Of a stretch of 64,000 nt of DNA, positions 851 through 20,529 are shown in pieces. Positions within the stretch are counted from its first letter, which is position 1. Each line of letters opens with the position of its first letter. A model generated the notes under the pieces. That model worked only from the letters and a program-made list of their open reading frames with translations, was not told where the DNA came from and did no database searches. Origin of the DNA: Candidatus Choladousia sp. (GTDB lineage: Bacteria > Bacillota > Clostridia > Lachnospirales > Lachnospiraceae). The stretch spans positions 30,547-94,546 of the forward strand of contig JBGVDJ010000022.1 of the NCBI GenBank assembly GCA_045119335.1. Direction: 5' to 3'. Both the position numbers and the translations under genes were made by a program.

Positions 851-2494
851 TTAAAGCTTGAAGAACGTTCCCAACAGATTTCGTCCCAGTGATGCCCCCA
901 CATTACCGCCCAGTTTCTTTCCGAAGCTTCCGCCGATGGACTTTCCGAGAGAATTGCCGAGCTCACGGCCGATGGTTCCTGCGGCAGAGGAGGCGACGTT
1001 TTTCACACCGGAGCGGATTGCTTTCTCTCGTTTTTCCGCTTCACGCTGCTGTTCTTTTGCCAGTCGTTCCGCTTCGCGCTGTCTTTCTTTTTGAAGTTTT
1101 GCGGCTTCCTTCGCCTGTTCTTTTTCAAGCTGTGCAGCTTCCCTTGCCTGCGCTTTTTCCAGGGCGACAGCTGCTTCACGCTGCTGTTCGGCTGCAAGAT
1201 TCTGCTGGCTTTTTCTTTGAAGAAATTCGTACGCAGAATCACGGTCTTCCATATTCTGATATTTCAGAGTCAGATTGTTTACGAGGATTTCCTGCTTTCG
1301 GTCAGCGTCGGAAATCGGTCCCATCAGGCTCTGAGGAGGGAGAATCCGGCAGCGCTGTACAATGCCCGGGATACCTTTTGCATCAAGCACCGATACGAGT
1401 GCTTCCCCGGTTCCGAGCTGCGTCAGAACCTCGCGCGTGTCAAAGGCGGGGTTGGTTCGGAATGAATTTGCTGCGGATCGGATTGCCTTTTCTTCTGCCG
1501 GTGTATATGCGCGCAGCGCGTGCTGAATTTTGTTGCCGAGCTGGCTCAGCACACCGTCCGGAATATCCTTCGGATTCTGAGTGATAAAGTAAATGCCTAC
1601 ACCCTTGGAACGGATCAGCTTAACGACCTGTTCAATTTTCTGTTGAAGTGCTTTGGAAATATCATTGAACAGCAGGTGAGCTTCGTCGAAAAAGAAGACC
1701 ATGCGGGGTCTTGGCTGATCACCGATTTCCGGCAGTGTTTCGAACAGCTCTGAGAGCATCCAGAGCAGGAAAGTGGCATACATGGTTCCGCTGGTGACGA
1801 GTGTACGGCAGTCAAGTATGTTGATGGTTCCGCTGCCATTTGCGCCTGTGGTGAACCAGTCTGCTATATTCAGCGCGGGTTCTGTGAAGAACTGCTCGCC
1901 TCCGGCTGCCTCCAGGGCAACAACATTGCGAAGAATGGCTCCAATACTCTGTCTGGCAATGTTGCCATATTCTGCAGTCAGTTCTTTGTTATTTTCCCCG
2001 ACATACTGCAGCATGGCCTTAAGATCTTTTGTATCAATGAGAAGAAGATCCTGATCATCCGCGATTTTGAAGATGACAGTCAGAAGGTCAGTCTGTGTGT
2101 TATTAAGATCCATGAGCCTGGAGAGAAGAACCGGGCCCATTTCAGAAATCGTTGTGCGAAGCGGAATACCGGTCTTACCGAAGATATCCCAGAATGCAGT
2201 GGGGTATTGCTGATAAGTGAATCCGCAGTCATTCAGTCCGAAAGCAGTTATACGCTCCTGCATATCGGTGCTGTCCTGCCCCGGCCGGCACATGCCGGCC
2301 AGATCACCTTTGACATCAGCGAGGAAGACTGGCACTCCTGCATCACTGAAGGATTCTGTGAGCACTTTGAGTGTGATGGTTTTTCCTGTGCCGGTTGCTC
2401 CGGCAATCAGTCCATGCCGGTTTGCCATTTCGGGCAGAATGCAGATCTTCTCGTCATCTGCGCTGCCGATCCAGATTTTGCCGTCGTAATACAT
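851..2494 (-). CDS. DUF853/YjgR family HerA-like ATPase
   Basis: RHGLIAGATGTGKT Walker A, FFFDEAH Walker B, YFITQNP, QHALRAYTP; start moved to MYYDG by GAAAGGAA RBS. Confidence 0.88.
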   Translation of the reverse strand: MYYDGKIWIGSADDEKICILPEMANRHGLIAGATGTGKTITLKVLTESFSDAGVPVFLADVKGDLAGMCRPGQDSTDMQERITAFGLNDCGFTYQQYPTAFWDIFGKTGIPLRTTISEMGPVLLSRLMDLNNTQTDLLTVIFKIADDQDLLLIDTKDLKAMLQYVGENNKELTAEYGNIARQSIGAILRNVVALEAAGGEQFFTEPALNIADWFTTGANGSGTINILDCRTLVTSGTMYATFLLWMLSELFETLPEIGDQPRPRMVFFFDEAHLLFNDISKALQQKIEQVVKLIRSKGVGIYFITQNPKDIPDGVLSQLGNKIQHALRAYTPAEEKAIRSAANSFRTNPAFDTREVLTQLGTGEALVSVLDAKGIPGIVQRCRILPPQSLMGPISDADRKQEILVNNLTLKYQNMEDRDSAYEFLQRKSQQNLAAEQQREAAVALEKAQAREAAQLEKEQAKEAAKLQKERQREAERLAKEQQREAEKREKAIRSGVKNVASSAAGTIGRELGNSLGKSIGGSFGKKLGGNVGASLGRNLLGTFFKL

Positions 2495-2820
2495 AGTAAT
2501 TATCATTCCTTTCTCAGGTACAGAGCTGCCTGCTTCTTTGAAACTTTTGCATCCGCAGCAGGAACAGCCTGTTCCACATTACTTTACTGTACATCAGCCA
2601 GGTACCTGTATCTGTACAAACAGGTGCGCTGCCACATTTCCTGACTCATTGTTTTACATGAAATAAACCTGATTTTATTATAGCGAATGCAGGGGAATGG
2701 AGCAAGCAGAGAAGGAAAAACGACAGGTACAAAAAGGTTGACGGTGGCAGAATACATGCTATTATTAAAACAAATATCTGCAAACGGCAGTAAAAATGAG
2801 TTTGGAAATGGAGCGGACAA

Positions 2821-3924
2821 ATGAATTTTGACGAAGTAAAAAAACTGATGGATCGTTCAGTAGAGAATGATCACGTTCCGTGTTCGGATATCGTGATAAC
2901 ACATGAGGGAAAGACTGTGTTCCGGTATATGAACGGGACGAGAGACGATGAAAAGAAACTTCCGGTCAGAGGAGATGAACTGTATTTCCTCTATTCAGCA
3001 TCGAAGCCGATTACATGCACGGCTGCACTGCAGCTGTATGAGAAAGGAAAAATCCGGCTGGAAGACAGGGTGGCAGACTATATTCCGGAGTTCGGGAACA
3101 TGATGGTAAAAACGGAAAACGGTGTGCGAAAGGCGGAGAAAGCAATCACATTAAAGAATCTTTTCACCATGACATCCGGTCTTAATTATGATCTGGCAAG
3201 TCCGGGGATTCTCGGGCAGATTCAGGAGAAGCCAGATTCCTCCACGCTGGAGATGGTGAGAAGCATGACAGGTGATCCGCTGGACTTTGAACCGGGCGAG
3301 CATTACCAGTACAGTCTCAGTCACGATGTGCTGGCAGCTGTCGTGGAAGTGGTGGCGGATATGCCGTTCGGAGATTACCTTCAGAAACATATTTTTGATG
3401 TGTGTGAGATGAATCGGACCGGATTTGTACTGAATGAAGAAATCAGGAAAAATATGTGCAGTCAATATACCTTTGACTGGGAGGAGCAGACCGCGAAGCT
3501 GATAGAAAAGGAAAATCAGTATATCCTGACTCCGGCTTACCAGAGCGGAGGGGCCGGTCTGATTTCCTGCGTGGATGATTATATTAAATTTGCGACAGCT
3601 ATGGCAAACGATGAGCGTCTGCTGAAGGCGGAGACGCGCGATCTGATGCGTGCGGATCACCTTTCCGGTCAGGCATATCTGGATTTCCAGAATTCAAAAC
3701 CCGGGTATTCCTACGGACTCGGTGTGCGGACGGATGCAGCGGGAAACTTTGCGGCTAAAGGAGAATTTGGATGGGATGGAGCTGCAGGAGCGTATACGCT
3801 GATAGATCCGGATAATCGCATTGCTGTCTTTTATGCAACACATATTCATTGTTATGGAGATTATCTTTATGACAGGTTCCATCCGGCAATTCGGGATGCA
3901 ATCTATCGGGGGATTTCAGGATGA
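2821..3924 (+). CDS. Serine hydrolase, beta-lactamase class C / family VIII esterase fold
   Basis: YSASKP (SxxK), FEPGEHYQYS, SGGAGL, EFGWDGAAG; no signal peptide. Confidence 0.88.
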   Translation: MNFDEVKKLMDRSVENDHVPCSDIVITHEGKTVFRYMNGTRDDEKKLPVRGDELYFLYSASKPITCTAALQLYEKGKIRLEDRVADYIPEFGNMMVKTENGVRKAEKAITLKNLFTMTSGLNYDLASPGILGQIQEKPDSSTLEMVRSMTGDPLDFEPGEHYQYSLSHDVLAAVVEVVADMPFGDYLQKHIFDVCEMNRTGFVLNEEIRKNMCSQYTFDWEEQTAKLIEKENQYILTPAYQSGGAGLISCVDDYIKFATAMANDERLLKAETRDLMRADHLSGQAYLDFQNSKPGYSYGLGVRTDAAGNFAAKGEFGWDGAAGAYTLIDPDNRIAVFYATHIHCYGDYLYDRFHPAIRDAIYRGISG

Positions 3925-3966
3925 TCATGTGTTTCGGAATGCTATGAGATCTAAACCAGGGTGACT

Positions 3967-4131
3967 GTATCTATAGAGAATTTTTGCTTGTTCAGATACT
4001 TTTTCAACTCATTTTGGGGTGATGAATCTCCGAAATTGAGCAAAAAAGTATCTATGAGAAAGAATTGCACTTACGGATACTGTTTTTTGCTGATTCTGGT
4101 ATCTATGGAACAGGTTTTTCTGTATGGATAC
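3967..4131. repeat. Three degenerate 33-bp palindromic units GTATC-N23-GATAC
   Basis: Units at 3967-3999, 4048-4080, 4099-4131, each GTATCTAT...GATAC with identical 23-nt inner spacing and imperfect stems. Confidence 0.75.
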
Positions 4132-4302
4132 TTTTCAGATTGTAAAATGGACCCTATAGAATGGATATCTTGAAAATCATTTTATACTCAAAAGTGCTGG
4201 CAAGAATTTTCCCTTGAAAAGAGAATCTGTGCAGGAAGTTTTTTGATATAGATATTAATGTTCATAAGTTCATCTGAATATTGAACTGGTTCATGTTTCG
4301 GC

Positions 4303-4396
4303 CGGGCGCGTTTGCGCCCGGTTTTCTGCATTATGCCTGTAACATGTGCAAGCCTGTGAATGGTTTGCGCCCGGTTTTCTGCGTCATGCCTGTAAC
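4303..4396 (+). repeat. GC-rich terminator-like hairpin plus partial direct duplication of its 3' arm
   Basis: CCGGGCGC-GTTT-GCGCCCGG-TTTT at 4303-4325; TTTGCGCCCGGTTTTCTGC.T.ATGCCTGTAAC at 4311-4343 and 4364-4396. Confidence 0.7.
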
Positions 4397-4661
4397 GTCA
4401 AAGCAGTGACTGTCATGCGGAGAATATTATAAACAGTCATGCAAAGACCGGACTTTTTTGCATATTGAGAACGGAACTGCCGGGTGGTTTTGAAAGTGGG
4501 GGACTCAGAAAGCTCCGGAAGATGTTCAGAAAATGAGATATTCTTTTTGATTAAGAAGCACAGGCATTCTGGTTCTGGTGTTCGGATGATTTCGAATTAA
4601 ATTCAACATTCCAGTGTATTCTAGTTTCGGATTATTCCTCAGGCATTTTTTAATCACAAAA

Positions 4662-4729
4662 AGAACATTTGTTTGAAAAACTGCTTGATTTCGTAATTAG
4701 ATGTGATATAATAACAGAACAAATGTTCG
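4662..4729 (+). promoter_or_regulatory. Sigma-A promoter flanked by two LexA/DinR (SOS) boxes
   Basis: TTGATT (4685-4690), 16 nt, TGaTATAAT (-10 at 4707-4712); AGAACAAATGTTCG (4716-4729) and AGAACATTTGTTTG (4662-4675) match Firmicute CGAAC-N4-GTTCG. Confidence 0.8.
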
Positions 4730-4839
4730 ACATGAGGCTTGAGATTTTCATCTGATAAGATGAAAAGGATATTTCCTATTGGAACGTTGAAATATTAGAA
4801 TGCTGAAGTGGAAAATACGACTGTGAAAGGACATGGCTC

Positions 4840-6165
4840 ATGAGGATTGCGAAGGAAATGGATTTGTATCAGAAACTGAATATTCTGACGGATGCAGCGA
4901 AATATGATGTGGCATGCACTTCCAGCGGGGTAGAACGGAGGGGGAGTGGTCACGGCATGGGAAACTGTACGGCAGCAGGTATCTGCCACAGTTTTTCAGC
5001 TGATGGCCGTTGTATTTCCCTGTTGAAGATCCTGTTCACGAATGAGTGTGTGTTTGACTGTAAATACTGCATCAATCGTGCTTCCAATGATGTGGAGCGT
5101 GCATCATTCACACCGGATGAGGTCTGCAGACTGACTATAGAATTTTATCGGCGCAATTATATAGAAGGATTATTTTTGAGCTCCGGTGTCCTGAAAACAC
5201 CGGCATATACGATGGAGCTGCTGTATCAGACGCTGTACAAGCTGCGTACGGAGTATCATTTTGAGGGATATATTCATGTAAAAGCGATTCCGGGAGCACC
5301 GCAGGATCTGATTACGAAGACGGGTTATCTGGCTGACCGTATGAGCGTGAATCTGGAGCTTCCGACAGCTGAGAGTCTGCGCAGGCTGGCTCCGCACAAG
5401 ACTCGGAAGCGTATTCTGGAGCCTATGCGTCAGGTACAGCTGCAGCGCCAGGAGAATAAGAATGAACTGGTTGTTTTCAAAAATGCACCGCAGTTCGTAC
5501 CGGGGGGTCAGAGCACACAGATGATCATCGGGGCGACACCGGAAAATGACTATCAGATTTTGGCGGTGGCGGAGTCTCTTTATCAGAAGTTTGAACTGAA
5601 ACGTGTTTTTTACTCTGCATTTGTTCAGGTGAATCAGGATGCCATGCTGCCGTCACTTCCGGGAGGCCCGCCTCTTCTGCGGGAACATCGCCTGTATCAG
5701 GCGGACTGGCTGCTGCGTTTTTATGGCTTTGGCGCACAGGAGCTGCTCAGTGAGAGTCATCCTAATTTTAATGTATTTCTGGACCCGAAATGTGACTGGG
5801 CGCTGTCACATCTGGAACAGTTTCCGGTGGAGGTCAGCAAAGCGGATTATTATACGCTGCTGCGTGTGCCGGGAATCGGACCGAAGTCAGCCCAGCGGAT
5901 TCTGAAGGTGCGCAGAACCGGAAGCCTGGATTATACATCCCTTCGGAAGGCAGGCGTGGTTCTGAAACGGGCTGTTTATTTTATTACCTGTAACGGGAAG
6001 CAGATGTACCCGTTGAAGATAGAGGAGGATTTTATTTTGCGCAATCTCTTGCAGAGTACAGACTGGAGACCGGCGGAGACCTTGACTTACAGGCAGCTGT
6101 CTCTGTTTGATGACGGACAGATTCTGGGAGATGTTCCGAAGCCTCTGTTACAGGCGGGAGTATAG
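4840..6165 (+). CDS. Putative DNA modification/repair radical SAM protein (TIGR03916-like) with helix-hairpin-helix motif
   Basis: GICHSFSADGRCISLLK, NECVFDCKYC (CxxxCxxC), REHRLYQADWLLRFYGF, LLRVPGIGPKSA (HhH), C-terminal QLSLF. Confidence 0.92.
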   Translation: MRIAKEMDLYQKLNILTDAAKYDVACTSSGVERRGSGHGMGNCTAAGICHSFSADGRCISLLKILFTNECVFDCKYCINRASNDVERASFTPDEVCRLTIEFYRRNYIEGLFLSSGVLKTPAYTMELLYQTLYKLRTEYHFEGYIHVKAIPGAPQDLITKTGYLADRMSVNLELPTAESLRRLAPHKTRKRILEPMRQVQLQRQENKNELVVFKNAPQFVPGGQSTQMIIGATPENDYQILAVAESLYQKFELKRVFYSAFVQVNQDAMLPSLPGGPPLLREHRLYQADWLLRFYGFGAQELLSESHPNFNVFLDPKCDWALSHLEQFPVEVSKADYYTLLRVPGIGPKSAQRILKVRRTGSLDYTSLRKAGVVLKRAVYFITCNGKQMYPLKIEEDFILRNLLQSTDWRPAETLTYRQLSLFDDGQILGDVPKPLLQAGV

Positions 6166-6191
6166 TACAGGATTGGGGGTATAGAGAGAAG

Positions 6192-6992
6192 ATGATACTG
6201 TTTCAGTGTGAAGACAATGTAGACGGAATATTTACGGCAGTGTATGATGCATGGGCCAGCAGACTTGGTCACAGTAATGTGGGGATCCGTGTGCAGTCGC
6301 AGATGGATCTGGAACTTTTTGCGGAATACCGGTCGGTGGAGACTGATGCAGAAAAAGCGGAAAAAGTGGCCCGTTCCATTCGCAAAAAGATGGGAGAGGA
6401 TGCGTACCAGACAATTTATCAGGCTGCACTTTCAAGGTATGCGGAAAAGACGGATTGTATTTATCGCGTTGTTGTACGCGGAATGTCCGCGTCCGTGGCA
6501 GCCTGTGAAGCCAGGAAAGTGATCTGGAACCTGCAGGATGCTGATGTATGCCGACTTTTTGAATTGTCACGAAGAACCGGGTCGGAGACCCATCGATATA
6601 TACAGTTTGTGCGCTTCAGGGAGCTGGAGAGCGGTGTGATGTTTTCGGAGATACAGCCGGAAAATTATGTCCTGCCGCTGATCGGCGATCACTTTGCAGA
6701 CCGCTTTCCCAATGGAAATTTTATGATTTATGACAACACGCATAATGACTGCCTGATTCATGGCGGATCCAGGCCGTGGTTCATTCTCCGGGATACACAG
6801 CCGGATCCGGCAGTGAAGGATTGTCTGACCGATAAAGAGGCAGAGATGCAGCGGCTGTGGAGAGGATTCTGTGACAGCATTGCGATTGAGGCACGAAGAA
6901 ATCAGCGGCTGCAGATGCAGTTCTGGCCATTGAAGTTCCGGAAATGGATGACGGAAGGACAGATGGAAGATCCGACGGAAGAAGCAGGGTGA
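6192..6992 (+). CDS. DUF4130 / TIGR03915-like putative DNA metabolism protein
   Basis: DGIFTAVYDAW, YIQFVRFREL, HFADRFP, LWRGFCDSIAIEARRN..LQMQFWPLKFRKWM; known partner family of the upstream radical SAM. Confidence 0.88.
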   Translation: MILFQCEDNVDGIFTAVYDAWASRLGHSNVGIRVQSQMDLELFAEYRSVETDAEKAEKVARSIRKKMGEDAYQTIYQAALSRYAEKTDCIYRVVVRGMSASVAACEARKVIWNLQDADVCRLFELSRRTGSETHRYIQFVRFRELESGVMFSEIQPENYVLPLIGDHFADRFPNGNFMIYDNTHNDCLIHGGSRPWFILRDTQPDPAVKDCLTDKEAEMQRLWRGFCDSIAIEARRNQRLQMQFWPLKFRKWMTEGQMEDPTEEAG

Positions 6993-7195
6993 CTGGAAAT
7001 AGAACAGGATAAAACAAAAGTTGAAATTCGGTTTTAACAGAATGGAACATCTTCTGTATCTGAAAGGTGATCTGTGTTATGATAGAGTGCAGGTAGACTG
7101 TGGGGAAGAAGCAGGCGGCAGCATATTTTTACCGCGCATCCGCAGGACAATGACATGTTGCTTCATAAGTAAGTGGAGCAGAAGGCAGGACAGAT

Positions 7196-10033
7196 ATGGA
7201 AGAAGGAAAGAGTATCCGGATATCGATTCGGAATCTCGTTGAATTTATACTTCGCTCCGGGGATATCGACAGTCGCCATGCAGGCCCCATGGACCGGGAT
7301 GCCATGCAGGAGGGCAGCCGTATCCACCGGAAGATACAGGGCAGGATGGGAAGCAACTATCAGGCCGAGGTACCTCTGGCAGTCGAGATAGCAGGTGAAG
7401 GATATACGCTCAAAGTAGAAGGACGTGCGGATGGCATTTTCCGGGAGAAGGAAGAGAATGACAGCAGAATGCGGGGAATTATCTGGCTGGACGCAGATGA
7501 GGCAGACGGAAGGAGTGCAGTTTCTCCGCTGGAGCGGATGATGCAGGAATACGGGAATCCGGAAAATGATAATCAGATAACACTGCAGTTGAGTGACGGC
7601 GAGGGTGGGCAGAAAGTACCGGAGTCAGGTGCCAAGGCAGGCAATCAGGCAGCATCGGAGTCAGGGACCGTCGTGGACAATCAGATCATGTTGCAGCCGG
7701 GGAATTGCGAAGATAATCAGATCATGCTGCAGCCAGGTATTGACGGAGGCGATCAGATAGAACTGGATCAGGACAATGCGGCAGCTGAACGGAAATTTCC
7801 GGGTTCAGATAGTGCAATGGATATTTTAGCCACGCAGCCGACAGATCGTGGAACAGAGTCCCGGAAGACAGAGGCGGATGGAGCGTTGGCGGAGACAGAT
7901 CATGTTTCGCTGGACAAAGTATATATTGATGAGATAAAAGGCATGTACCGGGATGTCACGACACTGGAAGAACCATATTCGCTTCATATTGCGCAGGCAA
8001 AGTGTTACGCTTATATTTACGGAAGTCAGAAGAATCTTTCACATATCGGTGTGCAGATGACATACTGCAGTCTGGAGACAGAAGAGGTGCGGCGATTCCG
8101 GAAACGCTATACGATGGAAGAGCTGAAAGTCTGGTTTGACGATCTGATCCGGAAGTACCAGAAATGGGCGGAGTATCAGTTTGCATGGAAGGAGACACGT
8201 CAGGCATCGATTCAGGGACTGCCGTTCCCGTTTGCATGGCGCTCCGGGCAGAAGGATGTGGCGGGAGGTGTTTATCGGACCATATTAAGACGTAAGAAGC
8301 TGTTTATTCAGGCACCTACCGGAACAGGCAAGACCCTCTCTACAGTCTATCCGGCTGTAAAGGCAGTGGGGGAGAATCTGGCTGACCGCATTTTTTATTC
8401 TACCGCGAAAACAATTACGCGCACGGTTGCAGAGGAGGCATTTGAAATTCTGCGCAGGACCGGACTGCAGATGAAGACAGTGACTCTGACTGCAAAAGAA
8501 AAAATCTGTTTTCTGGAGGAAACGGAGTGTAATCCTGATGCCTGTCCATATGCGAAGGGGCATTATGACCGCATCAATGATGCGGTGTTTGATCTGATCA
8601 CCTGCGGAGAGCAGCAGTTCAACCGGCAGACCATAGAAGCGCAGGCCCGGAAATGGCAGGTCTGTCCTTTTGAGTTCGGACTTGATGTTTCATTATGGGC
8701 GGATGCAGTGATCTGCGATTACAATTACATTTTTGATCCGCGGGCGAAATTGAAACGATTCTTTGGAGAGGGTGTGAAAGGGGATTATCTGTTTTTGATT
8801 GATGAGGCGCATAATCTGGTGGAACGCGGCAGAGAAATGTTTTCCGCTTCATTATATAAAGAAGATTTCCTGGAGCTGAAAAAGGAAATTCGCCCGTACA
8901 GCCAGAAAATGGCACGTGCACTGAGTCGCTGCAATAACTGGATGCTGGAGCGAAAACGGGAGTGCGATGGTGTGAAAGTCTGGCCGGATGCTGGAATGCT
9001 TCCGGTGTATCTGACCAATCTCTGCGGCATTATGGAGGACTTTCTGGAAGAGTCCAGAAACATGCAGATAAATGAGAAGGTGATGGAGCTGTATTTCCAG
9101 GCGAGACGTTTTCTGGATACCAGTGACCAGCTCAATGAGAACTATGTGGTGTATACAGAACTCTGCGAGGATGCCAGGTTCATGATAAAACTTTTTTGTG
9201 TGGATATTTCAGAGAATCTGCAGGCATGTCTTGATAAGGGGAGGAGTACAATTTATTTTTCAGCAACATTTCTGCCAATTCATTATTATAAAAGTCTGCT
9301 GAGTACGCTTGAGGATGACTACGCTATCTATGCGGAACCGACTTTTGATCCCATGCGCCGGCAAGTGCTGATCGGGACGGATACGAGCAGTCGTTACACG
9401 AACCGAAGCGAGCGTGAGTACCGGAAGATGGCGGAATATGTTCTGGAAATGATAAGGGCCAGGCGAGGCAACTATATGATATTCTTTTCCTCCTATCGAA
9501 TGATGGAGGAGGTAGCGCATCAGTTTGAACAGCTGTGTGAAGTGCAGGGGGAGAGTGTGACGCTGCTCTGTCAGGAAACCGGCATGTCCGAACAGGAGAG
9601 AGAAGCTTTTCTGCAGCAGTTCGAGGAGGTTCACAGAAATGGACTTGCAGGGTTCTGCGTAATGGGAGGGATTTTCGGAGAAGGAATAGATCTTCGTAAT
9701 GATCGTCTGATCGGTGCAGTCATTGTGGGTACCGGACTGCCGCAGGTCTGCAATGAACGGGAAATTCTGAAAGATTTTTATGATAAACGGGGCGAGGACG
9801 GATTCTTCTATGCGTATCTCTGCCCGGGCATGAATAAAGTGCTGCAGTCGGCCGGAAGGGTAATCCGTACGGAGGAGGATAAAGGAATCATTCTCCTTTT
9901 GGATGAGCGGTTTGCGTCCCTGCGTTACCGGAAAATGTTTCCGGCGGAATGGAAGCGGCTTGATTACTGCAGTTTGAAGAGTGTTCAGGCTAAGGCGGAT
10001 CTGTTCTGGAACAGTACAGAACAGAAAGCCTGA
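7196..10033 (+). CDS. DinG/XPD-family Fe-S helicase with N-terminal PD-(D/E)XK (Cas4-like) nuclease domain
   Basis: EGRADG...IDEIK nuclease motif, QAPTGTGKT, Cys of Fe-S (KIC..ECNPDACPY, VCPFE), IDEAHN, GEGID, QSAGRVIR. Confidence 0.9.
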   Translation: MEEGKSIRISIRNLVEFILRSGDIDSRHAGPMDRDAMQEGSRIHRKIQGRMGSNYQAEVPLAVEIAGEGYTLKVEGRADGIFREKEENDSRMRGIIWLDADEADGRSAVSPLERMMQEYGNPENDNQITLQLSDGEGGQKVPESGAKAGNQAASESGTVVDNQIMLQPGNCEDNQIMLQPGIDGGDQIELDQDNAAAERKFPGSDSAMDILATQPTDRGTESRKTEADGALAETDHVSLDKVYIDEIKGMYRDVTTLEEPYSLHIAQAKCYAYIYGSQKNLSHIGVQMTYCSLETEEVRRFRKRYTMEELKVWFDDLIRKYQKWAEYQFAWKETRQASIQGLPFPFAWRSGQKDVAGGVYRTILRRKKLFIQAPTGTGKTLSTVYPAVKAVGENLADRIFYSTAKTITRTVAEEAFEILRRTGLQMKTVTLTAKEKICFLEETECNPDACPYAKGHYDRINDAVFDLITCGEQQFNRQTIEAQARKWQVCPFEFGLDVSLWADAVICDYNYIFDPRAKLKRFFGEGVKGDYLFLIDEAHNLVERGREMFSASLYKEDFLELKKEIRPYSQKMARALSRCNNWMLERKRECDGVKVWPDAGMLPVYLTNLCGIMEDFLEESRNMQINEKVMELYFQARRFLDTSDQLNENYVVYTELCEDARFMIKLFCVDISENLQACLDKGRSTIYFSATFLPIHYYKSLLSTLEDDYAIYAEPTFDPMRRQVLIGTDTSSRYTNRSEREYRKMAEYVLEMIRARRGNYMIFFSSYRMMEEVAHQFEQLCEVQGESVTLLCQETGMSEQEREAFLQQFEEVHRNGLAGFCVMGGIFGEGIDLRNDRLIGAVIVGTGLPQVCNEREILKDFYDKRGEDGFFYAYLCPGMNKVLQSAGRVIRTEEDKGIILLLDERFASLRYRKMFPAEWKRLDYCSLKSVQAKADLFWNSTEQKA

Positions 10034-14240: not shown

Positions 14241-17200
14241 ATGAAAAAGCAGAAAATGACGGCAGATAATGTCGAGCAGTTAATGGAAATAGTGCGGGCG
14301 CTGCAGACGGGTGAAGACCCGGAGGCCGCCCTGCAGAAAAAGAAAGCGGAGAGTGCGCCACAGGCGGACTCTCCGAAATCAAATCTGGAGGAAGATGCTC
14401 TGAAGCGTGGCAGTACTTTCGGCACAGGGAAATTGAGGAAATTAATGTGCAAAAGAGCGGAAAATGCAGATTTGAATGAAAAAGAGGAGGCAGAAGACAC
14501 CGAGAGTGCAGATGACGCACTGGCACAGTCAAAGCCGGCTTATAGCGCCGAAAAGCGTGCAGGCTCTGTGGATACTGCAGCGAAACGAAGGGACTGCGTG
14601 GGGAGCGATTCAGAACAGGCAGATCTGATGAGCAGGAAAGTAAAACAGAGAGATTCTGCACAGGATTCAGCAGAACGGACGAACCTGATGAGTGAAGCAG
14701 GAAAACAGAGAGATTTTGTGGACGATGCAGCAGAGCAGGCGAATTCGATCAGTAAGACAGGGAAGCAGGGGGATGCAGCAGAACGGATGAACTTGCTGAG
14801 TGCGGCTGTGAAACGGATGAATTCTGCGAAGCATTCAGGATCGGCACGATCCCGGGTGGAAGAACCGGATGATTTTCAGGATGACGAGTTCGAAAAGAAT
14901 CTGCTTGAGGATAGCAGAAAGAAACTGGAAAAGCCGGATATTAATGCCATGCTTGATCGCGTGTCGGAGAGTCTGTGGAAATTTGTGCAGAAAATTGACC
15001 GGGTGATTGATCCTGCGACAGCCGGGAAAAGGGAAAAGAAAAAGCAGGAAAGATCTGTGAATTGGGCAGATTCTGTGTCCGGGGGCGCGTTTGAGCCGGA
15101 TGAGAATGCAGAAGCTGTAAAGCTGATGCATCATGCTGATGCCGATATGAGTATGAAAGCCGATGCAGATATAAATACAAAAGCTAAAGAAAGCGTAAAT
15201 GTGAGAACGGAAGCAGGGATAAAACACGAAGCCAGTGCAGAACCTGCTGACAGATCAGATGCAGAGATGCAGGCAAAGCCGGATGAAACCGGTGAAAATG
15301 TGATGCAGGAAAAGACGGAAGATCAGAAGACGATCGACCGCATTTTTGAAAGCACTGCAGCAGATACATCGACAGCAGATACATCGACAGCAGAAACAAT
15401 AGATTCCGGGGCAGAGGATTCGGGTCAGAATTCAGGTGATAACAGTGCCGGACAAAATCTGCCGGAAACGACGACTGCAGAAGATTCTGTCAATGAAAAG
15501 ACGGAAAACGGAAATACAGAAAAAGAGAATATAGAAAAAGAGAATACAGGAAAGCCACGGAAAGGCAGAAAGACTGATGAAAAGAGTAAGAGCGGCAGAG
15601 CGTTTCATTTGGATTCGCTTTCACCGTCAGCACTGAAGGAATCCGCAGGCGATTTGAGTGCAAATCTGCGTGAAAAGGGAATTGGACACCGGGAGATTGT
15701 TATGATTCTTCTTGTCGTTGTTCTGGCAGTGGTGATTGTTGTTATGATCGTTAATGGAGTGCGGGGCTCTCTGGAAGAAAAGCAAAAGAGCAAAAACGTT
15801 ACAGCGGATTCGGGATTGATTGTTACGGTAGAGGATGAACCGGAACAATGGTGCAGCTCATATTCAGTACAGTTGAGGTTTCGAACACAGCGGGCACCGG
15901 TTACGAAAGTGACGATCAATGGAACGGTTCTTCAGCCGGATGCGAAAGGCTATGTAACGTTTGAGACATCTGATTATGTGCTGGAAGCTGAGGCTGAGAC
16001 GGAGAATGGTACGCTGAAGGCGCAGATTGAGATTCCGAAACTGGATTCTCAGGCACCTTTTGTCAGTGCATCCAGGGCTCAGAATCAGATTACGCTGACG
16101 GGCGCAGATGCACGTTCAGCAATCAAAGGTATCTGGTATGCCGTAGTGCACGAGGATGATCCGATTCAGCTGCCACGCTATCAGGAGTACAGTGGAGCGA
16201 TTCCATTTGAGGAGAATGCGATGTATTATTTCTATGCGCAGGATCAGGCAGGCAATCGAAGTGATCCTGTTGTGACAAATATGGAGACGGCAGACGCAAT
16301 CGGATTTGCGCAGGAAGAAGTCTGTATGTATCCGGATGAAACAGTATATCTGGAGCTTCAGGAGAGTCCGGAAGGTGCGTTGCTGAATAATCTGCGGTAT
16401 GAGAGTATGAATCCGGATATCATATCGGTGGATAAGAATGGTGCAGTTACCGCACTGAAGGAAGGAACGGCAGCAGTCAGAGTCAGTGCTGACGGGGTAG
16501 AGAGTGCCAACTGCATTATTACGGTCAGCAGCACAAGAACGGTGACGCTCAGTGCAATCGGAGACTGTGTTCTCGGTTCGGACGAATCATTTAATACGAC
16601 GACAAATTTTGATGCATACGACGCAGTGAACGGGCATTCCTATTTCTTTAAAAATGTGAAAGATATTTTAGAGAATGATGATGTCACATTTGCGAATCTT
16701 GAGTGTGCTCTGACAACGGAGACTACACGTGAGAACAAAACGTATGCGTTCAAGGGCGATCCGTCTTATACAGAGGTGCTCGCCGAGGGATCTGTGGAAG
16801 TAGTTACGCTTGCAAATAATCACAGCAGTGATTACGGTGAAAAGAGCTATGATGATACGGTCCGCTATCTGACAGAAGCCGGAATTGACTACTGCAGCGG
16901 TACATCGTATGCAATGCGGAAAATCAATGGTGTCAATACTGCATTTGTCGGAGTATATGTTTTGAGAGACGGGATGGCAGTAGAAGATGAAATGAGAGAG
17001 ACGATCGCAGCAGCAAAAGAGGCAGGTGCTCAGCTGGTAATTGTAGCTTTTCACTGGGGAAGTGAGAAATCCACAGAGCCGGATGAGACACAGCGGTCTC
17101 TGGCACATTCCGCAGTTGACTGCGGTGCTGATCTGGTAGTCGGGCATCATCCGCATGTTCTTCAGGGAATTGAGAAATACAATGGAAAATACATTGTATA

Positions 17201-17498
17201 CAGCCTGGCAAACTTCTGCTTTGGCGGTAATACAGCACCGGCCGATAAAGATACAATGATTTTCCGGCAGACCTTTACCATCAGTGACGGTGTTGTGCAG
17301 GATGACGATCAGATCGAGATCATTCCGTGCAGTGTATCATCTGTCTCGGATTACAATAATTATCAGCCGACACCGGCAAGCGGCGAGGAAGCGGATCGTA
17401 TCATGGCACGGATCAATGAGTACAGCCAGGAATTCGGACAAACTTATGCGGCTTCTTCCGATACGAGTCTGGTAGATACAGAGAGCGAAGCACTCTAA
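14241..17498 (+). CDS. Membrane-anchored CapA (poly-gamma-glutamate CapA/metallophosphatase-fold) protein with ~480-aa low-complexity N-terminus and Ig-like domains
   Basis: TM helix IVMILLVVVLAVVIVVMIV; Big_2-like segment (YESMNPDIISVDKNGAVTALKEGTA); CapA motifs IGDCVLG, ANLE, LANNHSSDYG, FHWG, GHHPHVLQG, YSLANF. Confidence 0.85.
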   Translation: MKKQKMTADNVEQLMEIVRALQTGEDPEAALQKKKAESAPQADSPKSNLEEDALKRGSTFGTGKLRKLMCKRAENADLNEKEEAEDTESADDALAQSKPAYSAEKRAGSVDTAAKRRDCVGSDSEQADLMSRKVKQRDSAQDSAERTNLMSEAGKQRDFVDDAAEQANSISKTGKQGDAAERMNLLSAAVKRMNSAKHSGSARSRVEEPDDFQDDEFEKNLLEDSRKKLEKPDINAMLDRVSESLWKFVQKIDRVIDPATAGKREKKKQERSVNWADSVSGGAFEPDENAEAVKLMHHADADMSMKADADINTKAKESVNVRTEAGIKHEASAEPADRSDAEMQAKPDETGENVMQEKTEDQKTIDRIFESTAADTSTADTSTAETIDSGAEDSGQNSGDNSAGQNLPETTTAEDSVNEKTENGNTEKENIEKENTGKPRKGRKTDEKSKSGRAFHLDSLSPSALKESAGDLSANLREKGIGHREIVMILLVVVLAVVIVVMIVNGVRGSLEEKQKSKNVTADSGLIVTVEDEPEQWCSSYSVQLRFRTQRAPVTKVTINGTVLQPDAKGYVTFETSDYVLEAEAETENGTLKAQIEIPKLDSQAPFVSASRAQNQITLTGADARSAIKGIWYAVVHEDDPIQLPRYQEYSGAIPFEENAMYYFYAQDQAGNRSDPVVTNMETADAIGFAQEEVCMYPDETVYLELQESPEGALLNNLRYESMNPDIISVDKNGAVTALKEGTAAVRVSADGVESANCIITVSSTRTVTLSAIGDCVLGSDESFNTTTNFDAYDAVNGHSYFFKNVKDILENDDVTFANLECALTTETTRENKTYAFKGDPSYTEVLAEGSVEVVTLANNHSSDYGEKSYDDTVRYLTEAGIDYCSGTSYAMRKINGVNTAFVGVYVLRDGMAVEDEMRETIAAAKEAGAQLVIVAFHWGSEKSTEPDETQRSLAHSAVDCGADLVVGHHPHVLQGIEKYNGKYIVYSLANFCFGGNTAPADKDTMIFRQTFTISDGVVQDDDQIEIIPCSVSSVSDYNNYQPTPASGEEADRIMARINEYSQEFGQTYAASSDTSLVDTESEAL

Positions 17499-17553: not shown

Positions 17554-17631
17554 AACAGGATGCAGAATGAAGAGCACGAAACAGGATGCAGAATGAAGAG
17601 CGCGAAACAGGATGCAGAATGAAGAGCATAA
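17554..17631 (+). repeat. 26-bp tandem repeat x3
   Basis: AACAGGATGCAGAATGAAGAGCxxxA at 17554, 17580, 17606; no spacers. Confidence 0.9.
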
Positions 17632-17646
17632 AGCAGATGTGAGTCA

Positions 17647-17678
17647 AAAGAGGTGCGACAATTTGTTGCACCTCTTTT
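17647..17678 (+). terminator. Intrinsic terminator downstream of the CapA-domain gene
   Basis: AAGAGGTGCGAC-AATTT-GTTGCACCTCTTTT. Confidence 0.75.
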
Positions 17679-17721
17679 CCTATACGAAAATTGGATAAAG
17701 TGTTTTCAGACAGCAAAAAAA

Positions 17722-17761
17722 GTGTCATTTCAGTGAATAAATAAAATGACACAAATTGTGT
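17722..17761. promoter_or_regulatory. Two overlapping inverted repeats (operator-like) upstream of the Y1-like gene
   Basis: GTGTCATTT (17722-17730)/AAATGACAC (17744-17752) and ACACAA-A-TTGTGT (17749-17761), just upstream of TTGAAA...TATGAT-like promoter elements. Confidence 0.5.
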
Positions 17762-17848
17762 TAAAATGTTGAAAAGTGTATATAAATATGATAGGATTTA
17801 TCTGTGGGGAATAAAGACCGCGAAGGTCAATAACGGGGGGAGAATCTA

Positions 17849-18403
17849 ATGTCAAATCAAAATGGGGTTATGAAAGTCTATTATCATGTCATGTGCGGCG
17901 ACCGCTGCCTGTTTGCAGACGAAAGAATTAAATGGCATTTACTGGATGCGGTTGCTGCTGTCTGGAAAAAGCAAAATTGGAAAATTTACGCGTTCTGTCT
18001 GATGGATGACCGGGCATATTTTATTACAGAGACGGGAAATGCAGCAGAAACGGAACAGGAACTCCTGCGTGCGGCTGAGCGTACACTGGAATATTTGTGC
18101 TGCAGTATCTGGGGCCGACCAAACAAGGGGAGCATGCTTTTGAATATCTTTTCAGAAGAATTAAATTCTCTGGATGAGATAACCGGCCGCTGCGTACAGA
18201 TTCACCGCCGGCCACTGCGTCAGGGGTATGTGCGTCGGCTGAGTGATTACTGGTGGAGCAGCTACAATACTTATATCGGATCCTATAATTGGCAGATGAT
18301 TGATTGCGAGGCTGTCCTGATGTATTTTTCATCAGATCAGGAGGACGCTGTTCGCATGTTTCGGCGGTGTCATCGCACATACGTTGAGGATGATCTGTCA
18401 TAA
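17849..18403 (+). CDS. Y1/RAYT (IS200-like HUH) transposase homolog with catalytic residues substituted
   Basis: YYHVM, LFAD, KIYAFCLMDDRAYF (family: IYAYCLMxNHxHL), CVQIHRRPLRQGYV..LSDYWWSSY (family: xRYIHxNPVxAG..DYxWSSY); intact ORF, GGGGGAG RBS. Confidence 0.75.
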   Translation: MSNQNGVMKVYYHVMCGDRCLFADERIKWHLLDAVAAVWKKQNWKIYAFCLMDDRAYFITETGNAAETEQELLRAAERTLEYLCCSIWGRPNKGSMLLNIFSEELNSLDEITGRCVQIHRRPLRQGYVRRLSDYWWSSYNTYIGSYNWQMIDCEAVLMYFSSDQEDAVRMFRRCHRTYVEDDLS

Positions 18404-18655
18404 AGGATAACGCTCATTGTTTAAAAATATGATGCAAAATTGATCTTTTTCTTAAATAAATCGAAACTTTATGACATAGAAAAAGAAAAGTGTTAGAATG
18501 ACAGAACACGGGGAGATTGTTATATAACCTCTGGCAAGATTGCAAAGGAGTGCTGAGAAAGTTTTTTATGTTCTATATGATGTGCACCTCGAAGCAGAAA
18601 TGCCGGAGCATTCTGAAAGTCAACGAAAACGGACAGGATGAAAGGGGAGAATTCA

Positions 18656-20366: not shown

Positions 20367-20439
20367 GGGGTCTTAGCTCAGCTGGGAGAGCATCTGCCTT
20401 ACAAGCAGAGGGTCATAGGTTCGAGCCCTATAGGCCCCA
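20367..20439 (+). tRNA. tRNA-Val (TAC)
   Basis: GGGGTCT/AGGCCCC acceptor, CTGCC-TTACAA-GCAG anticodon arm, GGTTCGAGCC; promoter TTGACT...TATACT upstream. Confidence 0.96.
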
Positions 20440-20455
20440 TGATAAAATTGAATAT

Positions 20456-20529
20456 GGCGGAATAGCTCAGTTGGCTAGAGCATACGGTTCATACCCGTAG
20501 TGTCGAGAGTTCGAATCTCCCTTCCGCTA
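20456..20529 (+). tRNA. tRNA-Met (CAT), elongator type
   Basis: GGCGGAA/TTCCGCT acceptor, TACGG-TTCATAC-CCGTA arm like the Bacillus elongator tRNA-Met. Confidence 0.92.

Follow-up and report, generated by a model that had tools for sequence, protein, structure and literature searches.

A probably domesticated relative of the Y1 transposases, and the palindromes that accompany its gene in Lachnospiraceae

Introduction

Class 2 of the TnpA_Y1 superfamily consists of the RAYT, or TnpA_REP, proteins (Quentin et al. 2018, PMC6006769), of which E. coli YafM is an example (Messing et al. 2012, PMC3479197), and a survey of the superfamily published in 2018 found the HuH and Y motifs to be shared by all of its sequences (PMC6006769). 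The TIRYT proteins of subclass 2.1 join the Y1 core to a C-terminal Bac_DnaA_C/helix-turn-helix (HTH) domain and are flanked by terminal inverted repeats (TIRs) of the form GGGG[AT][CG]A[CG] (PMC6006769), and a 5' stem-loop has been described for IS200 (bioRxiv 10.1101/2024.06.26.600842). Domesticated Y1 transposases, the RAYTs, are already known, but they have been described as active nucleases. The TldR proteins (Wiegand et al. 2024) are reportedly nuclease-dead, RNA-guided repressors derived from TnpB. Our literature search for a nuclease-dead Y1 family found no description of one. Here we report on a gene, which we call Y1x, whose product is predicted to have the fold of a Y1 transposase and in which the catalytic residues have been replaced. 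It lies in a 64,000-nucleotide stretch of DNA from Candidatus Choladousia sp. (Lachnospiraceae; GenBank assembly GCA_045119335.1, contig JBGVDJ010000022.1, positions 30,547 to 94,546 of the forward strand). We refer to the whole of this stretch as the window and number positions from its first letter.

17849..18403, + strand: coding sequence (CDS) of Y1x, a predicted catalytically dead Y1/HUH-fold protein, characterised by its open reading frame (ORF), fold, orthologues and synteny, ratio of nonsynonymous to synonymous substitution (dN/dS) and single-copy status

Y1x is a descendant of a class-2 (RAYT/TIRYT-type) Y1 HUH transposase. Its catalytic residues have been lost and the gene has been kept intact, under selection, at one spot of the chromosome in 55 or more genomes of gut Lachnospiraceae, a combination that marks it as a recycled transposase. 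On balance we favour the explanation that Y1x is an HUH-fold protein without catalytic activity which has been domesticated and for which the palindromes upstream of its own gene are the probable binding sites.

Results

Fold and homology

The Y1x ORF starts with ATG, encodes 184 amino acids and has no internal stop codon in the window's ORF translation, which bears out the first-pass annotation's description of an uninterrupted gene. That annotation had also read the Y1_Tnp/RAYT pattern along the ORF, and all of the motifs that it quoted are present: the translation contains KVYYHVM, CLFADER, KIYAFCLMDDRAYFI, IFSEEL, QIHRRPLRQGYVRRLSDYWWSSYNTY and MIDCEAVLMYFSS. Profile searches returned the same family at low scores. 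The Pfam Y1_Tnp model matched with E=0.061 and 13.9 bits, below its curated cut-off of 23, and the NCBIfam model REP_Tyr_transpos (NF047646) aligned with residues 17-137 at E=3.9e-7 and 30 bits (cut-off 80). A search of PDB sequences with Y1x alone produced only noise, while a profile of the family found a sole, weak match, 4ER8 (E=0.078). At the level of sequence, homology to the Y1 families is weak yet consistent. Pfam gave no match in the 184 residues to a C-terminal HTH domain (Bac_DnaA_C, HTH_23 or HTH_28), and PHROGs and PADLOC gave no matches.

An alignment of 70 sequences (A2), drawn from two homology searches, was used as the input for AlphaFold2. The resulting model of Y1x has a pLDDT (predicted local distance difference test) of 91 and a pTM (predicted template modelling score) of 0.87, and it shows the RRM-like four-stranded sheet with flanking helices that typifies the Y1 superfamily (PF01797, TnpA_Y1). 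When the model was compared with the PDB by Foldseek, the first match was chain A of 4er8, the TnpA_REP of E. coli (E=3.2e-6, TM 0.57/0.63 over 151 columns). The 28 chains at ranks 2-29 were all Y1 transposases (IS200, IS608, ISDra2 and a Sulfolobus tokodaii transposase), making Y1 transposases of all of the top 29 matches. Foldseek was the check that had been proposed at the outset, and it settles the question: on the strength of the model, Y1x is predicted to have the Y1/HUH transposase fold.

The active site

The catalytic positions were mapped through the alignment with 4ER8 and through an alignment of 150 representatives that included catalytic relatives, and they fall in the first two of the following segments.

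18011..18019, + strand: codons R55-A56-Y57 at the HUH (His-hydrophobic-His) position, placed by 4ER8 and by relatives that read NHVHLL
18197..18211, + strand: codons Q117-I-H-R-R121 at the Y-I-H-x-N position of class-2 Y1 enzymes, placed by the alignments
18245..18265, + strand: codons D133-Y-W-W-S-S-Y139 after helix alpha-D, matching the 'DWPFST' or Y.WSS segment of RAYT/TIRYT proteins

H59-M60-H61 of 4ER8 aligns with R55-A56-Y57 of Y1x, its catalytic tyrosine, Y115, with Q117, and N119, the third metal ligand (PMC6006769, PMC3479197), with R121. Both histidines of the HUH motif, the nucleophilic tyrosine and the metal-binding asparagine are replaced: the loss had been recognised correctly in the first-pass annotation, which put the number of positions at three where the mapping to 4ER8 gives four out of four. 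At the place of the Y---NP context of class 2 RAYTs, Y1x reads Q-I-H-R-R-P.

The replacement is a property of the family. No full catalytic set occurs in any of 59 intact orthologues (described below). Position 55 is never histidine; position 57 is tyrosine in 40 of the 59 and histidine in nine, with C, F, S, V or D elsewhere. Position 117 is mostly E, Q, K, R or A, and the three orthologues with a tyrosine there are without the HUH motif. Position 121, an arginine in Y1x, is otherwise hydrophobic (L/I/V) and is in no case N or Q. The proposed check on conservation at the dead site thus finds the dead state throughout the clade, and the loss of the catalytic residues is ancient and common to all of its members. 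We infer from these alignments that Y1x can no longer cut or join DNA.

Other residues are retained with great constancy. D24, E25, K28, H119, D133-Y-W-W-S and Y139 are invariant in the 59 orthologues and P122 is conserved, S138 and Y142 are each kept in 58, and D53 is present in 57 with an asparagine in the remaining two. Y1x keeps the motifs ADERxK, IYAFC, IHxxP and DYWWSSY, none of them catalytic. Because ADERxK, IHxxP and Y.WSS are also conserved among the catalytic relatives, where the last of these takes the form (D/E)Y(R/P)WSS, they are ancestral motifs of the non-catalytic scaffold.

Orthologues, synteny and selection

A species-level scan with one genome per species found 75 loci, nearly all in metagenome-assembled genomes or isolates of Lachnospiraceae, and the window's neighbouring proteins were compared with the first 62 of them. 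The purL gene lies upstream on the same strand at 55 of these 62 loci, so the orthologues are syntenic and not sporadic, the latter being an outcome that the first-pass annotation had held to count against a functional gene. The usual order is purL, a PGA_cap/Big-domain (capA-like) protein, Y1x, a lipoprotein (often missing) and PAP2. The most divergent orthologues (25-29% identity) stand directly after purL and have tRNA genes, ispF or unassigned sequence on their downstream side, and whole-genome searches found the same purL arrangement in nine other genera. Y1x is vertically inherited and fixed downstream of purL in a subclade of Lachnospiraceae.

The 59 intact orthologues share 23-49% identity and are 162-331 amino acids long, mostly 176-196; two are shortened at the C-terminus to 162-163 amino acids and one is an extended form of 331. 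By the Nei-Gojobori (NG86) method, dN/dS was 0.04-0.24 for pairs with unsaturated dS (0.07-1.0), well away from the value near 1 that had been named as the sign of a decaying gene. Y1x evolves fast but under purifying selection. It is present in a single copy in the window's genome, which is 94% complete and in which no other Y1-type gene was found, and in metagenome contigs from gut samples, bovine and sheep ones among them, the CDS is found unchanged. The run search found no RNA runs containing the locus. A search of 1.84 billion representative proteins gave 455 matches at E<=1e-3; among the listed matches of at least 160 amino acids (P0028 onward), 93 were without both catalytic motifs and 25 had both.

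Disruption in close relatives, another proposed sign of decay, is for the most part not what we found, given the 59 intact genes. The exception is Bacterium 1XD42-54, of the same genus, in which a Mu-like prophage splits the orthologue at about residue 131. The prophage occupies 3800-9850 of one contig (L032, G199:C30) and 2256-3599 of another (L033, G199:C20). It encodes a MuA-like transposase of 710 amino acids, a MuB-like ATPase of 336 amino acids and an HTH repressor, with a DNA methyltransferase at its other end on the separate contig.

Origin of the family

In a tree of 203 sequences, one branch (support of 72 in the Shimodaira-Hasegawa-like approximate likelihood ratio test, SH-aLRT) parts all 43 catalytic-type from all 152 dead-type sequences, as would be expected if catalysis was lost only once. 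Among the distant matches in Lachnospiraceae, a group of proteins of about 250 amino acids (L014-L031) mostly carry NHVHLL together with YIHxNP, with inverted repeats of the GGGGACG type on either side of several of them; the database relatives P0210 and P0213 combine PF01797 with PF08299 (Bac_DnaA_C). Judged by these features, the nearest catalytic relatives match TnpA_REP subclass 2.1, or TIRYT, as described previously (PMC6006769). Beyond its catalytic residues, Y1x has lost two other features of these relatives, the HTH domain at the C-terminus and the TIRs.

Partly or fully dead forms of 250 amino acids that keep the C-terminal HTH are found in a sister family of Lachnospirales (L121, L122, L124, L125 and L127). 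In these the tyrosine has become F or H, and/or HUH has become S-A-N and the asparagine E or L: L121, for example, has S-A-N with F-I-H-Q-L-P, and L125 has H-V-H with H-I-H-Q-E-P. At their loci purL is not adjacent and the palindrome described below was not found. These forms may be intermediates between the TIRYT enzymes and the 184-amino-acid dead family.

A conserved palindrome upstream of Y1x

The spacer ahead of Y1x contains the following signals.

17646..17678, + strand: hairpin A, with 16-nt arms and a T-rich tail, from the inverted-repeat scan and its conserved core
17722..17752, + strand: inverted repeat GTGTCATTT-N13-AAATGACAC (arms at 17722-17730 and 17744-17752), from the inverted-repeat scan
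17746..17765, + strand: box B, ATGACACAAATTGTGTTAAA, which repeats the A palindrome in degenerate form and abuts the -35, from a regular expression run over the orthologue loci
17769..17797, + strand: promoter-like TTGAAA-17-TAGGAT with a TG before the -10, from conserved blocks in the spacers
17835..17842, + strand: Shine-Dalgarno sequence GGGGGGAG, 6 nt before the ATG, in the AATCTA(A/T)ATG context seen in orthologues

The core of hairpin A (17653-17671) is a 19-mer palindrome, GTGCGACA-ATT-TGTTGCAC, about 196 nt before the start codon, with the family consensus ATGCAACA-N3-TGTTGCAT. This conserved core travels with the gene; it was missed by the first-pass annotation and is new here. Hairpin A resembles a terminator of the upstream gene; its apical sequence is nonetheless conserved. 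It is found at -176 to -228 from the ATG at 35 loci, including those of orthologues with only 25-29% protein identity and loci where a terminator distinct from hairpin A serves purL, and the distance of hairpin A to the ATG is kept regardless of the gene upstream. In an ungapped alignment of the 35 loci (A3), 88% of cells are paired and 11 of the 14 pairs show compensatory changes, values that none of 500 shuffles reached, while slid controls gave 42-59% paired. Five positions of the core (G15, C19, G25, T26 and C29) are invariant. The frequent G-U pairs place the structure on the + strand, where, given these G-T wobbles, it would fold in sense RNA or in top-strand single-stranded DNA.

A position weight matrix (PWM) of the 19-mer finds its best site in the whole genome at this locus (26.5 bits), the next site reaching 19.8. 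At loci outside its training set the matrix gave 17 matches in 10.7 kb of upstream sequence versus five in 477 kb elsewhere, and it gave none next to the catalytic relatives. When the regions downstream of purL were examined in 29 other genera, two of the three with the gene had a site of at least 16 bits, and none of the 26 without it had a site of at least 14. No copy of the palindrome was found downstream of Y1x, and an Rfam scan of the spacers gave no matches. We considered the palindrome as a relic of an ancestral transposon end; this is not supported, the GGGGACG-type repeats of the relatives being dissimilar and a downstream copy being absent. The runner-up sites in the genome are C66:47830 (19.8 bits, GTGGGACATATTGTTGCAC) and C7:13759 (18.8 bits, GTGGAACAAAATGTTGCTT), which could be further sites or chance matches.

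Box B, which in the window has the form ATGACAC-N2-ATTGT..., was found with the regular expression ATGACA[CT]-N2-3-[AT]TTG at 32 of the 59 loci, at -85 to -146, and is a near-perfect A-type palindrome at four loci (L084, L090, L092 and L098). Hairpin A and box B co-occur with Y1x across genera, and the strict pattern of each is unique in the genome. In orthologues the upstream arm of the inverted repeat, GYSYCAT, is found again about 17 nt ahead of ATGACAC; elsewhere in the genome the pattern occurs once. The TTGAAAA and -10 blocks are likewise conserved in orthologous spacers. A ribosome-binding site, promoter-like elements and operator-like inverted repeats near 17722 had all been pointed out before, and each has its counterpart in the list above.

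Neighbourhood and proposed partners

The first-pass annotation had suggested three partners for Y1x, and we found grounds for none of them. One was a 26-bp unit, AACAGGATGCAGAATGAAGAGCACGA, repeated three times in tandem (17554-17636) between the stop codon of the capA-like gene and hairpin A; it occurs at this locus alone in the genome, and none of the orthologous spacers that we inspected contained it. Another was a palindrome, GTATC-N23-GATAC, of which the genome has 21 copies against about 6.5 for each neighbouring spacing, clustered with a repeated geometry of 81/51 nt.

3967-4131 of the window, and C4:2344-2508, C4:35464-35547, C60:94478-94581 and C66:19506-19661 on other contigs: clusters of GTATC palindromes, from the genome scan

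Among 301 genomes of the family, enrichment of this palindrome is seen only in the window's own genome (G000) and in one that lacks the gene (G087), the other carriers of Y1x being at background, so it does not track Y1x. The GTATC palindromes look like a species-specific repeat of the REP (repetitive extragenic palindromic) or MITE (miniature inverted-repeat transposable element) kind, unlinked to Y1x. The third proposed partner, the downstream lipoprotein gene, is not a constant one, being missing at about 20 of the orthologous loci.

The neighbours of Y1x (PGA_cap, lipoprotein, PAP2, IspF and GNAT) include no DNA-binding protein. No tnpB-like ORF was found among them and no terminal inverted repeats were found flanking the gene; with no multi-copy REP found either, this agrees with the earlier remark that tnpB, IS ends and REPs are missing. 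The upstream protein of 1085 amino acids (14241-17498) has a long, charged, repeat-rich N-terminal region that shows little conservation from one genus to the next; it also has a transmembrane segment and Big-like domains, and its C-terminal domain is of the PGA_cap (CapA-like) type. Downstream of Y1x, at 18443-18500, lies the strongly conserved promoter block of the next gene, TTTTTCTTAAAAAAATCGAAA...ATGACAA, a spacer and GTGCTAGAAT, which recurs with hardly a change from genus to genus, and on contigs from other organisms in the same metagenomes as well. Two tRNA genes, at 20367-20439 and 20456-20529 (Rfam, 69 and 61 bits), stand between PAP2 and ispF.

Discussion

In our favoured explanation Y1x would bind nucleic acid, recognising both sequence and structure, with the hairpin A and box B palindromes as its cognate sites, and such binding would parallel the hairpin binding of its ancestors. 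Bound at the terminator-like hairpin A and at box B beside the -35, the protein could set both its own transcription and the read-through from the upstream gene. Exaptation of the fold with loss of catalysis, as the first-pass annotation had proposed, is upheld by the fold and by selection. Its further proposal of a binder of single-stranded DNA or RNA hairpins is strengthened by the palindromes and weakened by the isoelectric point (pI). Y1x has a pI of 5.8 and a net charge of -3, and the family ranges over pI 5.2-9.5 with a median of 8.1, not uniformly basic, where the catalytic relatives have a median of about 9; with a pI so variable and often non-basic, we do not use global charge as backing for nucleic-acid binding. 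Several further observations weigh against the favoured explanation. The hairpin-contact residues of 4ER8 (R78, K82 and R97) are not recognisably conserved in the family, and a strong A site is lacking in the L053/L059/L071 subclade and in genome G037. Hairpin A resembles an ordinary intrinsic terminator, a role that may account for some of its conservation, and the palindromes could in reality be bound by a transcription factor encoded elsewhere. The prophage that splits the orthologue in Bacterium 1XD42-54 means that the gene is dispensable in that strain.

Some of these points lead to the most serious of the rival explanations, one that we think doubtful without dismissing it: Y1x would be a selected non-catalytic HUH-fold protein, the palindromes would serve some other regulator or simply be parts of the terminator and promoter, and the protein would act elsewhere, perhaps on other single-stranded DNA or RNA structures (replication forks, for instance) or through protein-protein contacts. 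The variable and often acidic charge of the family, the unconserved hairpin-contact residues, the orthologues without a strong palindrome, and the T-run of hairpin A, usually close behind the stop codon of the upstream gene, would all fit such a role. What speaks against it is that the palindromes track Y1x and not purL, that their distance to its ATG is constant whatever gene precedes, that genome-wide searches rank them first or find no other site, and that the locus has no other conserved regulator gene. A surviving enzyme with a rewired active site, in which D53, Y57, D24/E25 or a tyrosine of DYWWSSY would stand in for the HUH motif and the catalytic tyrosine, is unlikely. The invariance of D24, E25, K28, H119, D133, Y134 and Y139, the near-invariance of D53 and Y142, and the tyrosine that 40 of the 59 orthologues have at the second histidine position might suggest one, but Y57 gives way to H, C, F, S, V or D, the old site keeps no conserved triad of metal ligands and has a hydrophobic residue at position 121, and ADERxK, IHxxP and Y.WSS are ancestral, being conserved in the catalytic relatives too.

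Still less probable is a dominant-negative 'immunity' factor that binds the ends of incoming TIRYT/IS200-type elements and blocks their transposition. It would account for the lack of a second, catalytic-type match in genomes that carry Y1x: nine of 11 other carriers have a single match, and of the two second matches one (G199) comes from the remaining half of the gene that the prophage splits and the other (G025) has two stop codons. Yet a catalytic relative occurs in only about 13% of Lachnospiraceae genomes, a base rate at which none in about 12 carriers is not significant, and the GGGGACG-type TIRs of those relatives are unrelated to the palindrome. That Y1x is a decaying transposase pseudogene, or the relic of an insertion sequence still open by chance, we regard as refuted by selection and synteny and as almost certainly wrong. 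The Mu-like prophage, the two shortened orthologues and the extended one could be read as decay, but they are outweighed by the low dN/dS, by 59 intact orthologues that keep invariant motifs at 23-49% identity, by the strict synteny, and by the excess, among the listed matches of at least 160 amino acids, of those without both catalytic motifs (93) over those with both (25).

A more far-reaching form of the favoured explanation, which we put forward tentatively as a possibility, is that Y1x and its palindromes make up a self-contained module. The former transposase would read its own hairpin or dyad, whether in sense RNA, top-strand single-stranded DNA or duplex DNA, and would control termination at hairpin A as well as initiation at the promoter. 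It would then be the first regulator derived from TnpA(Y1), a counterpart of TldR, with the 250-amino-acid HTH forms as intermediates.

The Y1x clade is large, with at least 59 syntenic orthologues at the species level, and it seems to have dropped the chemistry altogether while still being kept by selection. Y1x is a tractable case for finding out what the HUH fold does once it is unable to cut: the protein is small and looks soluble, its candidate site has been narrowed to a 19-mer, and carriers are available in culture, candidates being Hominisplanchenecus murintestinalis DSM 111139 and Parablautia sp. Marseille-Q6255. The family adds an example from the TnpA side to the recycling of IS200/IS605 proteins by their hosts.

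Comparison with known systems

The RAYT/TnpA_REP proteins provide the best structural match to Y1x and, in 4ER8, its sole match among PDB sequences. Like them, Y1x is a single-copy, vertically inherited, syntenic and domesticated Y1 protein, and IHxxP and the D-aromatic-W-x-S-S segment after helix alpha-D are common to both. The RAYTs, however, keep HUH, the tyrosine and Y---NP and cleave REP hairpins, whereas four residues are replaced in Y1x, and they are accompanied by tens to hundreds of copies of REP or BIME (bacterial interspersed mosaic element) sequences, whereas the cognate-looking palindrome of Y1x is found at its own locus only. By sequence, the nearest catalytic relatives are the TIRYT proteins (P0210, P0213 and L014-L031), from which Y1x differs in its length of 184 amino acids and in having no HTH, no TIRs and no catalytic residues; its palindrome, ATGCAACA-N3-TGTTGCAT, is unlike the TIRYT TIR consensus. 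The TnpA proteins of the IS200/IS605 family (IS608, ISDra2 and IS200) share the HUH/RRM-like fold, and in front of Y1x, as in IS200, lie structured inverted repeats by which expression could be limited, but Y1x has neither a pair of subterminal hairpins at its two ends nor tnpB, multiple copies or catalytic residues.

The parallel with TldR is conceptual. In both cases a protein encoded by IS200/IS605 elements would have lost catalysis and been exapted as a site-specific regulator. TldR has a RuvC fold and is guided by RNA, whereas nothing indicates a guide RNA for Y1x, whose part as a regulator we infer from its fold, its conservation and the palindromes that travel with its gene.

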